A stretch of DNA of 64,000 nt, taken from the NCBI RefSeq assembly GCF_044324875.1, contig NZ_CP172185.1; one strand, given 5' to 3'. This document shows positions 8,437 to 26,627 of the stretch, piece by piece; positions within the stretch are counted from its first letter, which is position 1, and each line of letters starts with the position of its first letter. The notes below the pieces were generated by a model, which searched no databases, had not been told where the DNA came from, and worked only from the letters and a program-made list of their open reading frames with translations. This DNA comes from Escherichia coli. GTDB lineage: Bacteria; Pseudomonadota; Gammaproteobacteria; Enterobacterales; Enterobacteriaceae. A program made the position numbers and the translations under genes.

Positions 8437-8491
8437 GGTGATGCTGCCAACTTACTGATTTAGTGTATGATGGTGTTTTTGAGGTGCTCCA

Positions 8492-8767
8492 GTGGCTTCT
8501 GTTTCTATCAGCTGTCCCTCCTGTTCAGCTACTGACGGGGTGGTGCGTAACGGCAAAAGCACCGCCGGACATCAGCGCTATCTCTGCTCTCACTGCCGTA
8601 AAACATGGCAACTGCAGTTCACTTACACCGCTTCTCAACCCGGTACGCACCAGAAAATCATTGATATGGCCATGAATGGCGTTGGATGCCGGGCAACTGC
8701 CCGCATTATGGGCGTTGGCCTCAACACGATTTTACGTCACTTAAAAAACTCAGGCCGCAGTCGGTAA
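8492..8767 (+). CDS. insA: IS1 protein InsA
   Basis: 91-aa [43 protein letters not shown] (zinc finger plus HTH). Confidence 0.95.
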
Positions 8768-9189
8768 CCTCGCGCATACAGCCGGGCAGTGACGTCATCG
8801 TCTGCGCGGAAATGGACGAACAGTGGGGCTATGTCGGGGCTAAATCGCGCCAGCGCTGGCTGTTTTACGCGTATGACAGGCTCCGGAAGACGGTTGTTGC
8901 GCACGTATTCGGTGAACGCACTATGGCGACGCTGGGGCGTCTTATGAGCCTGCTGTCACCCTTTGACGTGGTGATATGGATGACGGATGGCTGGCCACTG
9001 TATGAATCCCGCCTGAAGGGAAAGCTGCACGTAATCAGCAAGCGATATACGCAGCGAATTGAGCGGCATAACCTGAATCTGAGGCAGCACCTGGCACGGC
9101 TGGGACGGAAGTCGCTGTCGTTCTCAAAATCGGTGGAGCTGCATGACAAAGTCATCGGGCATTATCTGAACATAAAACACTATCAATAA
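8686..9189 (+). CDS. insB: IS1 InsB frame (transposase made as InsAB' by -1 frameshift)
   Basis: 167-aa ORF overlapping the insA 3' end in the -1 frame. Confidence 0.93.
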
Positions 9190-9204
9190 GTTGGAGTCAT
9201 TACC

Positions 9205-9213
9205 GTTCGGCGG
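9205..9213. repeat. IS1 target-site duplication, right copy (GTTCGGCGG)
   Basis: Same 9-mer as at 8428-8436. Confidence 0.9.
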
Positions 9214-9860
9214 ATATGATCGCTCCAGGTATCCCGGCGATTATTGCTGCCACGTGTGAGGTAATATTCCGCCAGTTGTTCGTCATACTGCGCCAGTGCG
9301 TCTTTATCCAGCGGTTGATAGCTGTTTTCATGCACCAAAATGGAGGACGGTAAACGCGGCTTAAGATCCGGATTATCCGCAGGCCAGCCAAGGCACAGCC
9401 CAAACAGCGGCAGAACATGCTGCGGTAATTTCAGCAGCTCCGTCACCGCTTCAATATTATTGCGCAGGCCGCCGATATATACCCCGCCCAATCCCAGCGA
9501 TTCCGCTGCGGTTAATGCATTCTGCGCCATCATTGCCGTATCAACGACACCGAGCAACAGTTGTTCCGCCAGGCCGAGCTGAGCATCCGGACAGATCTGT
9601 AAATGGCGGTTAAAGTCGGCACAGAACACCCAAAACTCCGCCGCTTGCGCTACGTGTTTTTGCCCGCCGGTCAGCGCCACCAGTTCTTCACGTAACGCTT
9701 TGTCGGTAATGCGAATAATGCTACTGCACTGCAAAAAACTGGAACTGGACGTCGCACGGGCGCTGTTAATAATCGCCTCACGCTGCGCTTCGGAAATGGG
9801 TTCATCAGTGAAATGGCGAATGGAGCGATGGCCACAAATAAGTTCAATGGTTGGCGTCAT
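9205..9860 (-). pseudogene. nfsA: oxygen-insensitive NADPH nitroreductase NfsA, 5' portion (~218 codons); C-terminus replaced by 7 IS1-encoded residues
   Basis: ORF 9183..9860 reads MTPTIELICGHRSIRHFTDEPIS...DTWSDHIRRT then VMTPTY-stop inside IS1; the native tail lies at 8361-8436. Confidence 0.88.
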
Positions 9861-10131
9861 TATCTTTTTCTCTTTCTGAACGTGAATATTGCGGTGGACG
9901 GTTCATCAGCTGTGGGGCAAGACGTTTTGCCACCTGAAGAATAACCACCACCGCAGCGGGAAGCATGAGCAAAACACCGAGAAAAATCATCAGAATCTGC
10001 ACTTCTGGCCGAGAAAATGGCTCAGGCAGCGACAGGGAGCCGCTTACCGACAGCAGCGCCACCGCCAGCAACATCATTCCGATAAATTCCAGTATCAACA
10101 CGCTTTTAGGCAATTTACCGATCGCGCGCAT
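9844..10131 (-). CDS. ybjC: small membrane protein YbjC
   Basis: 95-aa ORF immediately upstream of nfsA and overlapping its start. Confidence 0.85.
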   Translation of the reverse strand: MRAIGKLPKSVLILEFIGMMLLAVALLSVSGSLSLPEPFSRPEVQILMIFLGVLLMLPAAVVVILQVAKRLAPQLMNRPPQYSRSEREKDNDANH

Positions 10132-10290
10132 ACGCTTCCCTCTGCAAAGTGAGCCTTCAGTCTAAAACTTTTCACTGTATTGTGTTTAACAGTTATAGCT
10201 TTTAGCAATTAATGCAACAGGTTAAACCTACTTTCAGCGAATACATTTTAGCGTGATCATTACAGGCATAAATCTATGAGGAGAGAAATA

Positions 10291-10548
10291 ATGCAAACCG
10301 TTATTTTTGGTCGTCCGGGTTGCCCTTACTGTGTGCGTGCAAAAGATCTGGCTGAGAAATTGAGCAATGAACGCGATGATTTTCAGTATCAGTATGTAGA
10401 TATTCGTGCGGAAGGGATCACTAAAGAAGATCTACAACAAAAGGCAGGTAAACCCGTAGAAACCGTGCCGCAGATTTTTGTCGATCAGCAACATATCGGC
10501 GGCTATACCGATTTTGCTGCATGGGTGAAAGAGAATCTGGACGCCTGA
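10291..10548 (+). CDS. grxA: glutaredoxin 1
   Basis: MQTVIFGRPGCPYCVRAKDLAEK with the CPYC active site; SD GAGGAGAG upstream. Confidence 0.95.
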   Translation: MQTVIFGRPGCPYCVRAKDLAEKLSNERDDFQYQYVDIRAEGITKEDLQQKAGKPVETVPQIFVDQQHIGGYTDFAAWVKENLDA

Positions 10549-10557
10549 TCGTCTGAC

Positions 10558-10590
10558 AAGCCCTCGCGTTGAGGGCTTTATTGATTTTTT
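10558..10590 (+). terminator. rho-independent terminator after grxA (AAGCCCTC-GCGTT-GAGGGCTT then T-run); overlaps the ybjM 3' end
   Basis: Perfect 8-bp stem followed by TATTGATTTTTT. Confidence 0.7.
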
Positions 10591-24542: not shown

Positions 24543-24557
24543 CACAAGGATGGATGT

Positions 24558-24944
24558 ATGGGTGTGTATAAGGCAAGACGATTCAGCCAAAGCACGAAAA
24601 AACTTGGTATTCACGATAAAGTTCTCATGGCTGCCGCTGAAGAAGTGATGCAGGGCATATGGGAGGCTGATTTAGGTAGCGGTGTCATCAAAAAACGTTT
24701 ACCCCTCCAACAAGGAAAGAGTGGTGGAGCCAGAACAATTATCTTTTTTAAATCAGCAAATCATGTGTTTTTTTATGATGGTTGGTCCAAGAGTGGTCTA
24801 AGCAGTAAAGGAACCAAAGAAATCGAAGATGATGAACTGGCGGCCTACAAAAAAATGGCAAATGCATTTCTGGCCTTTAGCAATAAGCAAATAGAGGATT
24901 TGATCGAAACTGGCTTTTTGATTGAGGTGAAAAATGAGCGATAA
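24558..24944 (+). CDS. HigB-like (RelE/ParE superfamily) toxin, 128 aa
   Basis: Motif KKRLPLQQGKSGGARTIIFF resembles the HigB core (GKxGGxRxI) as recalled from Vibrio HigB; SD AAGGA upstream; 11-nt overlap with the downstream HTH gene; about 40% GC. Confidence 0.65.
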   Translation: MGVYKARRFSQSTKKLGIHDKVLMAAAEEVMQGIWEADLGSGVIKKRLPLQQGKSGGARTIIFFKSANHVFFYDGWSKSGLSSKGTKEIEDDELAAYKKMANAFLAFSNKQIEDLIETGFLIEVKNER

Positions 24945-25263
24945 ATTACAAATGATGCTGGAAGATGCAAAGGAACTGAATGCACTGGGCCTGATGTCTG
25001 ATAGTGAAGTTGATGCCATTGCCGTCATGGTCAAAGCTCGTGAAGTCAGCGCCCGTATAGCCAAAGTCAAATCAATGACGGGTGAAGAGATCAAAGCCAT
25101 CCGCACCCGATACGGCATGTCACAATCCGTGCTGGCACATACAATGGGAATGTCAAAAGAAAGTGTCTCGAAATGGGAACGTAATGAAATAAAACCGAGC
25201 GGCCCGGCATTACGTATTTTGAATACATTGGCAATAAAAGGGCCGGAAGTTTTTGCAAAGTAA
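24934..25263 (+). CDS. HigA-like antitoxin, XRE-family HTH DNA-binding protein, 109 aa
   Basis: C-terminal HTH (IKAIRTRYGMSQSVLAHTMGMSKESVSKWERNEIKPSGPALRILN); SD GAGGTG; translationally coupled to the upstream toxin gene. Confidence 0.65.
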   Translation: MSDKLQMMLEDAKELNALGLMSDSEVDAIAVMVKAREVSARIAKVKSMTGEEIKAIRTRYGMSQSVLAHTMGMSKESVSKWERNEIKPSGPALRILNTLAIKGPEVFAK

Positions 25264-25292
25264 AATGTTTGCAAATGATTTACCACATTCAT

Positions 25293-25318
25293 TAGTACCC
25301 CTTGATTAAGGGGTACTA
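25293..25318. terminator. bidirectional hairpin TAGTACCCCTT-GATT-AAGGGGTACTA between the antitoxin gene and the GGDEF remnant
   Basis: Perfect 11-bp stem in the 69-bp convergent spacer. Confidence 0.65.
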
Positions 25319-25332
25319 ACACTATTCTAATT

Positions 25333-25859
25333 CTACTGCCAGCTAATCTGCGCCCTGCCGTTTTTCTTACTCTTATACAGTCGCTCATCCGCCAGCATTT
25401 TCAAGCGTTCAACGGTAGTACATTCATTTGAATGCGCTACACCGATACTGGTGCTTAAATTAATGCTTCCCACCTGGAAATGAACAATTTCTTTTAGAAT
25501 CGATAGCAACTCTTCCAGCGTTCCACCCGTATAAATCACCGCAAATTCGTCACCGCCGAAGCGGTAGACTTTACCTTTATCTACGGGGATCTGTGATTTA
25601 AGGATTTTCACCACTTTCATCAACACTTCATCGCCCAGCAAATGACCGAAGGTGTCGTTGATGTTTTTGAATTTATCGACGTCAAACAGGCACAAATAAC
25701 CGCCTTTTTCCGGCAGCGCTTTTAAATCTTCGTCAAAGGATTTTCTGCCCATTGCTTTGGTCAGGTCATCCAGGAACGCCGAGTTATACAGACTGTAGAG
25801 TTTTTTGACATCGGCAGCCGAAAAGAAAAGCCCGCCATCCAGTACGCGTTCAAAATGGT
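25333..25859 (-). pseudogene. dgcI: 3' fragment (~175 codons) of a diguanylate cyclase gene, GGDEF domain only; by position the yliF/dgcI remnant
   Basis: Frame is open from the IS1 edge (25859) through ...[25 protein letters not shown]...[11 protein letters not shown]... to stop at 25333; no sensor or TM domain and no start context. Confidence 0.75.
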
Positions 25860-25874
25860 GGTAATGACTCCAAC

Positions 25875-26378
25875 TTATTGATAGTGTTTTATGTTCAGAT
25901 AATGCCCGATGACTTTGTCATGCAGCTCCACCGATTTTGAGAACGACAGCGACTTCCGTCCCAGCCGTGCCAGGTGCTGCCTCAGATTCAGGTTATGCCG
26001 CTCAATTCGCTGCGTATATCGCTTGCTGATTACGTGCAGCTTTCCCTTCAGGCGGGATTCATACAGTGGCCAGCCATCCGTCATCCATATCACCACGTCA
26101 AAGGGTGACAGCAGGCTCATAAGACGCCCCAGCGTCGCCATAGTGCGTTCACCGAATACGTGCGCAACAACCGTCTTCCGGAGCCTGTCATACGCGTAAA
26201 ACAGCCAGCGCTGGCGCGATTTAGCCCCGACATAGCCCCACTGTTCGTCCATTTCCGCGCAGACGATGACGTCACTGCCCGGCTGTATGCGCGAGGTTAC
26301 CGACTGCGGCCTGAGTTTTTTAAGTGACGTAAAATCGTGTTGAGGCCAACGCCCATAATGCGGGCAGTTGCCCGGCAT
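25875..26378 (-). CDS. insB: IS1 InsB frame
   Basis: 167-aa ORF identical to the first copy. Confidence 0.93.
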
Positions 26379-26572
26379 CCAACGCCATTCATGGCCATAT
26401 CAATGATTTTCTGGTGCGTACCGGGTTGAGAAGCGGTGTAAGTGAACTGCAGTTGCCATGTTTTACGGCAGTGAGAGCAGAGATAGCGCTGATGTCCGGC
26501 GGTGCTTTTGCCGTTACGCACCACCCCGTCAGTAGCTGAACAGGAGGGACAGCTGATAGAAACAGAAGCCAC
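26297..26572 (-). CDS. insA: IS1 protein InsA
   Basis: 91-aa ORF identical to the first copy. Confidence 0.95.
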
Positions 26573-26627
26573 TGGAGCACCTCAAAAACACCATCATACA
26601 CTAAATCAGTAAGTTGGCAGCATCACC

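Follow-up and report, generated by a model that had tools for sequence, protein, structure and literature searches.

The stretch of DNA analysed here (the window, 64,000 nt of contig NZ_CP172185.1) belongs to an Escherichia coli-type chromosome, corresponds to K-12 coordinates 855-900 kb, and carries two copies of the insertion sequence (IS) IS1, one in the nitroreductase gene nfsA and the other at the neighbouring cyclic di-GMP (c-di-GMP) genes pdeI and dgcI. The two copies are the only pair of long repeats returned by a repeat search of the whole 64-kb window. Copy 1 occupies 8437-9204 (+) and copy 2 occupies 25860-26627 (-); string comparison gives arms of 768 nt each that are 100% complementary, with 16,655 nt between them. 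An earlier note on this DNA had described two identical IS1 in inverted orientation, and its coordinates, orientation and identity are all correct; a direct comparison for divergence between IS1 variants found the copies 100% identical over 768 bp. We describe the structure of each insertion, the order in which the two appear to have arisen, and what the resulting inverted pair implies for the DNA between them.

Each copy is a complete element of 768 bp. In copy 1, the left inverted repeat (IRL) lies at 8437-8459 (+), insA at 8492-8767 (+; GTG start, 91 amino acids), the A6C frameshift motif at 8743-8749 (+), the insB' frame at 8686-9189 (+) and the right inverted repeat (IRR) at 9182-9204 (+). 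The terminal inverted repeats of about 23 bp are imperfect (GGTGATGCTGCCAACTTACTGAT / GGTAATGACTCCAACTTATTGAT) and occur in the window only at the four IS1 ends, against a chance expectation of 0. Conceptual fusion of the two frames by the programmed -1 frameshift at A6C gives an InsAB' protein of 232 amino acids with an unbroken reading frame, which matches three Pfam domains over their full lengths, namely Zn_ribbon_InsA (PF03811, 8e-21), HTH_Tnp_IS1 (PF12759, 1.7e-28) and DDE_Tnp_IS1 (PF03400, 3.5e-78). Both copies are IS1A-like, with three substitutions relative to K-12 IS1A at IS positions 262, 444 and 561. The intact coding capacity, together with the recency of copy 1 within its clone, suggests that the element is probably active in transposition.

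Copy 1 is a simple IS1 insertion with a 9-bp target-site duplication. The 9-mer GTTCGGCGG adjoins both ends of the element, its left copy at 8428-8436 (+) and its right copy at 9205-9213 (+), and is found nowhere else in the window; the duplicated bases are nt 648-656 of the 723 nt of nfsA, and the 9-mer is present once at the empty nfsA site in K-12, in E. coli JNEC-KY178 (the closest complete genome) and in a sister contig of the clone. The gene is thereby divided into a 5' fragment at 9205-9860 (-), recognized by Pfam as the nitroreductase domain, and a 3' fragment at 8361-8436 (-), which consists of the last 76 nt including the stop codon, is severed from the rest of nfsA by copy 1 and is collinear with the annotated nfsA of K-12 and JNEC-KY178. 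The open reading frame (ORF) at 9183-9860 (-) encodes NfsA residues 1-219 followed by 6 IS1-encoded residues, 225 amino acids in all; the insertion cuts off the last 21 codons of nfsA, and residues 220-240 of the protein are gone. Copy 1 also divides the promoter-proximal part of nfsA from the downstream rimK-ybjN genes, on which it would be expected to exert a polar effect, given the established polarity of IS1.

NfsA is the principal reductase by which nitrofurans are activated, and the position of the insertion within its gene can be compared with lesions of known phenotype. Nitrofurantoin-resistant isolates have been found to carry IS1R in nfsA at nt 693/694, and also an E223 frameshift, both further 3' than nt 648-656 (Wan et al. 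2021, PMC8767348). Because the lesions of resistant isolates sit even further 3' in the gene, the nfsA::IS1 allele of the window likely causes loss of NfsA function, and by analogy with the nt 693 IS1R and E223 frameshift alleles the strain may show reduced nitrofuran susceptibility.

Copy 2 has a different structure. Its flanks, read in IS orientation, are ...CAGTATCTGGC and ACCATTTTGAA..., with no duplication, and the earlier statement that only the first copy keeps its target duplication is borne out, GTTCGGCGG flanking copy 1 and nothing matching at copy 2. The duplication is absent because the element replaces about 1,974 bp of adjacent pdeI-dgcI DNA. On one side lies a 3' remnant of dgcI (yliF) at 25333-25859 (-), 527 of 1,329 nt, which retains most of the GGDEF domain (Pfam GGDEF on an internal ORF of 139 amino acids) without start codon or promoter. 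On the other side lies a 5' remnant of pdeI (yliE) at 26628-27811 (-), 1,184 of 2,349 nt, which retains the CHASE9 sensor part and has lost the EAL domain; its reading frame continues into the IS1 IRL, for a product of 401 amino acids that ends in ...QYLAVMLPTY. On either side of copy 2 the sequence keeps the order of K-12 and JNEC-KY178, and the gap between these flanks is positions 27901-29874 of the JNEC-KY178 locus, or 1,974 bp; BLAST returns a gap of 1,970 bp, its alignment overrunning the junction into IS1 by 4 nt with one mismatch, and 1,974 bp was taken. An apparent 4-bp microhomology at the IRL/pdeI junction was likewise rejected as a spurious BLAST extension (CACC versus CACA). The deleted DNA comprises the 3' 1,165 nt of pdeI (the EAL part), a 7-bp spacer and the 5' 802 nt of dgcI, such that copy 2 now joins pdeI nt 1,184 to dgcI nt 803. 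Both c-di-GMP genes are predicted from these structures to be inactivated.

The segment bracketed by the two copies (9205-25859, 16,655 bp) runs from the nfsA 5' part to the dgcI 3' remnant. Its gene content agrees with the earlier note and, according to 97-99% nucleotide synteny with annotated K-12, comprises the nfsA 5' part, ybjC, grxA, ybjM, ybjL, rcdA, ybjJ, ybjI, ybjH, mdfA, ybjG, deoR, dacC, gstB, yliI, bssR, rimO and the dgcI remnant. The window as a whole is collinear with the reverse complement of the K-12 rlmC to ldtB region, with window 632-8436 matching rlmC through the nfsA 3' end, 9205-24337 matching the nfsA 5' part through rimO, 25334-25859 matching the dgcI 3' end and 26624-42987 matching the pdeI interior through ybiU; JNEC-KY178 shows the same collinearity at higher identity. 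Since the bracketed segment and its flanks are collinear with both genomes, the 16.6 kb lie in the ancestral orientation relative to both flanks; no reversal of the segment was found relative to K-12 or JNEC-KY178, and the swapped reverse-complement 9-mers that mark an inversion are absent from the two IS1 copies in the window.

The relative ages of the two insertions can be read from related assemblies. Draft assemblies with 100% identity to the window are interrupted at the IS1 junctions: the inter-IS1 segment is recovered with a short IS1 overhang at each end as a 17,070-bp contig (GCA_027706465.1) and a 16,710-bp contig (SRR31072984), and a 42,113-bp draft contig ends in the IRL beside pdeI. 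The protein that spans the pdeI-IS1 junction was found in 52 indexed blocks and the protein that spans the nfsA-IS1 junction in 8 contigs, all of at most about 17 kb. These junction-spanning proteins and the RimO I324 allele worked as clade markers, while the 139-residue GGDEF ORF (256 blocks) and the YbjL N149 allele (5,630 blocks) failed. An 87,506-bp contig (GCA_900482385.1; 13 similar places) carries the dgcI-IS1 junction and 169 nt of IS1, and a 72,597-bp contig (GCA_016679215.1) stops at window position 25858. Both reach far past nfsA on the other side and, because they span the nfsA region, would lack copy 1. A sister contig of 26,701 bp (GCA_044079835.1, DBADNN010000066.1; 15 samples) is 100% identical to the window around nfsA with the site empty, ends by its coordinates at the dgcI/IS1 junction, and has an nfsA frameshift of its own at window-equivalent 9232-9233, at about codon 210. 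In slightly more distant relatives (99.93% identity) dgcI-pdeI is intact.

The occurrence of the copy 2 junction without copy 1 in members of the clade therefore places the pdeI-dgcI IS1 and its deletion first and nfsA::IS1 later, in a sub-branch; copy 2 appears to be the older, clade-wide insertion and copy 1 the younger one. The 'different histories' that the earlier note had proposed for the two copies are in this way given a content, copy 1 being a simple insertion with a 9-bp duplication and copy 2 sitting at a 1,974-bp deletion in many more assemblies of the clone. By the same comparison, nfsA appears to have been lost twice in the clone, through IS1 in one branch and through an independent frameshift in the sister branch. 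The parallel losses suggest nitrofuran selection on the lineage and, taken with the literature, indicate that nfsA::IS1 is probably a nitrofuran-selected loss of function.

Both loci are also hit by IS1 elsewhere in the species. IS1 lies within a few hundred bp of the window's nfsA site in 45-47 of the 5,426 complete E. coli genomes, at several positions, and in pdeI/dgcI in 13-24 complete genomes, at different sites and with nothing deleted; these counts, made at ≥80% coverage, refer to IS1 near the site and not at it, nearby pieces having been joined. Among the genomes inspected, the nearest nfsA insertion is that of strain 504838, 18 bp away and with its own duplication, and several unrelated-looking strains have one common nfsA IS1 site about 240 bp from that of the window. 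Of the complete E. coli genomes with IS1 near nfsA, the 25 ranked best all lack an insertion at the window's own nfsA site, and neither window junction occurs among the best matches listed for complete E. coli genomes, in which IS1 lies 18 to about 600 bp away. The nfsA and pdeI/dgcI loci seem to be either frequent IS1 targets or frequently selected knock-outs.

Taken together, the pair is best explained by two separate, ordinary IS1 events, an older one that left copy 2 and the deletion at pdeI-dgcI and a younger one that placed copy 1 in nfsA, an explanation to which we assign a probability of about 85%. It builds on structures, a deletion, an ancestral orientation and relative ages that the analysis itself established, and the events would have run as follows. 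IS1 would have entered pdeI or dgcI, after which about 1,974 bp of adjacent DNA would have been lost, most likely via the element's own one-ended, intramolecular (abortive) transposition. Later, an identical IS1 would have transposed into nfsA, duplicating nt 648-656. It may have come from copy 2 or from some other IS1 of identical sequence; copy 2 is a candidate donor because IS1 tends to hop locally, and local hops, 8-9-bp duplications and a preference for AT-rich targets have been reported for IS1A (PMC5009759). The inverted orientation of the two copies would then be due to chance, and RecA-dependent recombination across the 768 identical bp would, rarely, flip the 16.6-kb segment, so that rare inversion isomers presumably exist. 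All of this is textbook biology, with an IS1 insertion, a deletion beside IS1 and inverted repeats through which homologous recombination could invert the DNA between them. None of the inferences in the earlier note was contradicted. What the analysis adds to it is the reason why copy 2 has no duplication, the sequence in which the events took place, the loss of nfsA with its parallel lesion and a real inversion in another strain. Beyond that note, copy 1 is seen to interrupt a gene whose inactivation is a known first step to nitrofurantoin resistance; and while the note was right to call the dgcI side of copy 2 a 'GGDEF gene remnant', the deletion also truncates the gene on the other side, pdeI.

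Several points weigh against this account or against parts of it. The donor of copy 1 is not identifiable without the whole genome, and a one-ended adjacent deletion is not separable from recombination between two IS1 by sequence alone. In the dating, that the 72-87 kb contigs lack copy 1 follows from their length and not from a base-by-base reading, and the figures of 52 blocks and 8 contigs would shift with the gene calling and count only proteins that are exactly identical. Nitrofuran selection is argued from the parallel nfsA lesions and the literature, with nfsB lying outside the window, and inversion isomers in this strain are predicted from the repeat pair.

Deletion next to IS1 by abortive intramolecular transposition is known from classical work on the gal region. 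The principal competitor to this mechanism at copy 2 is homologous recombination between an IS1 in pdeI and a second, equally oriented IS1 in dgcI, with loss of the interval and of one IS1. We regard this route as possible but clearly less probable. It would leave the same end product, a single IS1 without a matching duplication between collinear flanks, at a locus whose two genes are recurrent IS1 targets at several sites, and recombination between IS copies does yield deletions in mutation-accumulation lines (PMC5009759). It requires, however, two same-orientation insertions within 2 kb followed by recombination, as against one insertion and one IS1-catalysed step, and IS1 at either copy 2 junction with the interval intact was in no assembly found. 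IS1 is, moreover, well known for variable deletions that begin exactly at its own end, and adjacent deletions of 11-66 kb starting directly at IS1 have been described (PMC10569738). The idea that copy 2 marks the edge of an imported recombination tract was discarded, near-identity to JNEC-KY178 running from about 12.9 to about 27.3 kb straight through it.

Other readings concern the pair as a whole. An assembly artefact, in which a repeat consensus made the copies identical or an arbitrary join across IS1 set the orientation of the segment, is suggested by the fact that short reads do not resolve 768-bp repeats and that draft assemblies of the clone break at exactly the four junctions. We consider it improbable, as the four junctions recur at 100% identity in independent NCBI and Logan assemblies, the assembled orientation correctly predicts a direct duplication around copy 1, and 64 kb contiguous across two IS1 imply long reads or finishing. 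More doubtful still is an IS1 composite transposon, with both copies and the 16.6 kb moving as a unit that carries mdfA and its neighbours. Such an architecture is formally present, with intact transposase genes and outward-facing ends available, but the segment lies at its ancestral chromosomal position among its ancestral neighbours, the two insertions are of different age, and the outer flanks CTTTAATGATTGTTCGGCGG and GCCAGATACTG differ, leaving no duplication around the whole unit. In a search of 72,556 plasmid records, every hit to the segment was a mislabelled chromosome or a chromosome fragment and none was an IS1-bounded unit, and the composite was rejected on native context, lack of an outer duplication and lack of plasmid copies. 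The least credible of these readings is that a single intramolecular replicative transposition (duplicative inversion) created the pair, or that the segment has already been inverted by recombination. Duplicative inversion does yield two identical inverted IS copies, and a product of this kind, over almost the same segment, is found in E. coli strain C1 (below). For the window as assembled, this reading was rejected because neither the segment nor its flanks depart from the order of K-12 and JNEC-KY178, because copy 1 sits between direct 9-bp repeats where split reverse-complement 9-mers of the C1 type would be expected, and because clade members have copy 2 without copy 1.

Under the reading of two separate insertions, the pair is still a substrate for inversion, with 768 bp at 100% identity, inverted and 16,655 bp apart on one replicon. 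Inversion by recombination between perfect inverted repeats of this length is expected from established knowledge, and IS-mediated inversions, one via IS1 among them, have become fixed in the long-term evolution experiment (LTEE; PMC4173774). An inversion would leave the four short junctions unchanged and alter only linkage across IS1, and would therefore be invisible in short-read contigs. A natural precedent is found in strain C1 (NZ_CP195942.1, 979881-998011), in which K-12 locus positions 19582-36175 (16,595 bp) are inverted, to give the order gsiD, pdeI-5', IS1, ybjC ... rimO, dgcI, pdeI-3', IS1, nfsA, rimK. The inversion is bounded by inverted IS1B copies, which have a single nucleotide difference between them and lie in pdeI and at the ybjC/nfsA boundary; 9-bp overlaps occur at both breakpoints, with the swapped reverse-complement 9-mers CGCCATGCA/TGCATGGCG and CTCTTTCTG/CAGAAAGAG. 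The C1 inversion also parts an intact nfsA from the upstream ybjC promoter region. Of the 5,426 complete E. coli genomes, 1 has the C1 junction. A viable strain can thus carry this segment inverted, and such inversions arise in nature, though they are seldom fixed; none has taken place in the sequence analysed here. By analogy, the predicted inversion in the window strain is realistic.

Such an inversion would restore no gene and bring no obvious functional gain or loss, because both of its breakpoints already lie in disrupted genes. A more ambitious proposal would have the pair maintain a reversible ybjC-to-rimO inversion polymorphism of 16.6 kb with a selectable effect, which might consist in re-wiring the SoxS/MarA-controlled ybjC-nfsA promoter or mdfA relative to the flanks, or would have it act as a composite element that mobilises mdfA. 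Neither the inversion polymorphism nor the mobilisation of mdfA is required by any observation, and we hold both to be very unlikely.

Some further features of the window were recorded along the way. Between rimO and dgcI, a 996-bp insert (24338-25333) that is absent from K-12 carries two overlapping ORFs at 24558-24944 (+) and 24934-25263 (+), encoding a RelE/ParE-family toxin (PF06296, 6.9e-33) and an HTH_3 antitoxin-like protein; JNEC-KY178 and some other E. coli also have the insert, annotated there as a type II toxin-antitoxin system. The aldose sugar dehydrogenase gene yliI is split by a one-base deletion at window 21731, relative to JNEC-KY178, into ORFs at 21704-22300 (-) and 21186-21647 (-) of 198 and 153 amino acids. 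The 198-residue product is on record in one other contig only (SRR31072984, 2 samples) and is not in the GCA_900482385.1 and GCA_016679215.1 contigs, which identifies yliI as a strain-level pseudogene. The complete RefSeq E. coli set that was searched does not contain the window, and identity to other genomes changes along it: 17000-25859 is 100.0% identical to JNEC-KY178, the best identity of 26628-41000 to any complete RefSeq E. coli is at most 98.7%, and patches of 23-43 mismatches per kb relative to JNEC-KY178 occur especially at about 36-41 kb. This contrast points to a mosaic ancestry typical of recombination, with a source lineage that would lie outside the complete-genome set. A 5.2-kb block between ybiU and ybiT (42988-48224) is absent from K-12; JNEC-KY178 has it, with the annotations LacI-family regulator, MFS transporter and GH31 glycoside hydrolase. 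At the other edge, beside the end of rlmC, window 1-632 has no match to the rlmC-artJ region of K-12 or JNEC-KY178, and on its minus strand encodes what we take to be the N-terminus of a membrane protein resembling a PTS EIIC (ascorbate-type) component.

The value of these observations lies mainly in annotation and epidemiology, and they raise no new biological question. Resistance to nitrofurantoin usually begins with an allele of the type seen here, nfsA::IS1; the pdeI-dgcI::IS1 deletion stably marks the clone; and the inverted pair, besides being a latent substrate for inversion, leads to breaks or ambiguity in short-read assemblies.

Each element of the locus has a counterpart among known systems. 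Tn9 and Tn1681 are IS1 composite transposons, the IS1 copies of Tn1681 being inverted. The window shares with them two IS1 around a DNA segment, but differs in that the unit shows no sign of movement and no outer duplication, its cargo being the native chromosomal neighbourhood. As in strain C1 and the LTEE inversions, inverted IS1 bracket a chromosomal segment, which in C1 is almost the same 16.6 kb; unlike in C1, the segment of the window is not inverted, and its 9-mers are those of a simple insertion and a deletion. The lesion at copy 2 resembles other IS1-adjacent deletions in starting exactly at the IS1 end, in having its other end at an arbitrary point in coding sequence and in keeping IS1 without a duplication; it measures about 2 kb, compared with the 11-66 kb of PMC10569738, and is old and fixed in its clade, whereas those deletions arose under laboratory selection. 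Copy 1 agrees with published nfsA::IS1 alleles (PMC8767348; Wan et al. 2023, PMC10569738) in interrupting nfsA towards its 3' end and in being flanked by a 9-bp duplication, and differs from them in its site, nt 648-656. The elements themselves match K-12 IS1 (IS1A/IS1R type) in their 768-bp length, terminal inverted repeats, insA, insB' and A6C -1 frameshift site, and in a 9-bp target duplication in an AT-rich context; they show no structural difference from it, and what is specific to the clone is the three substitutions and the two insertion sites.

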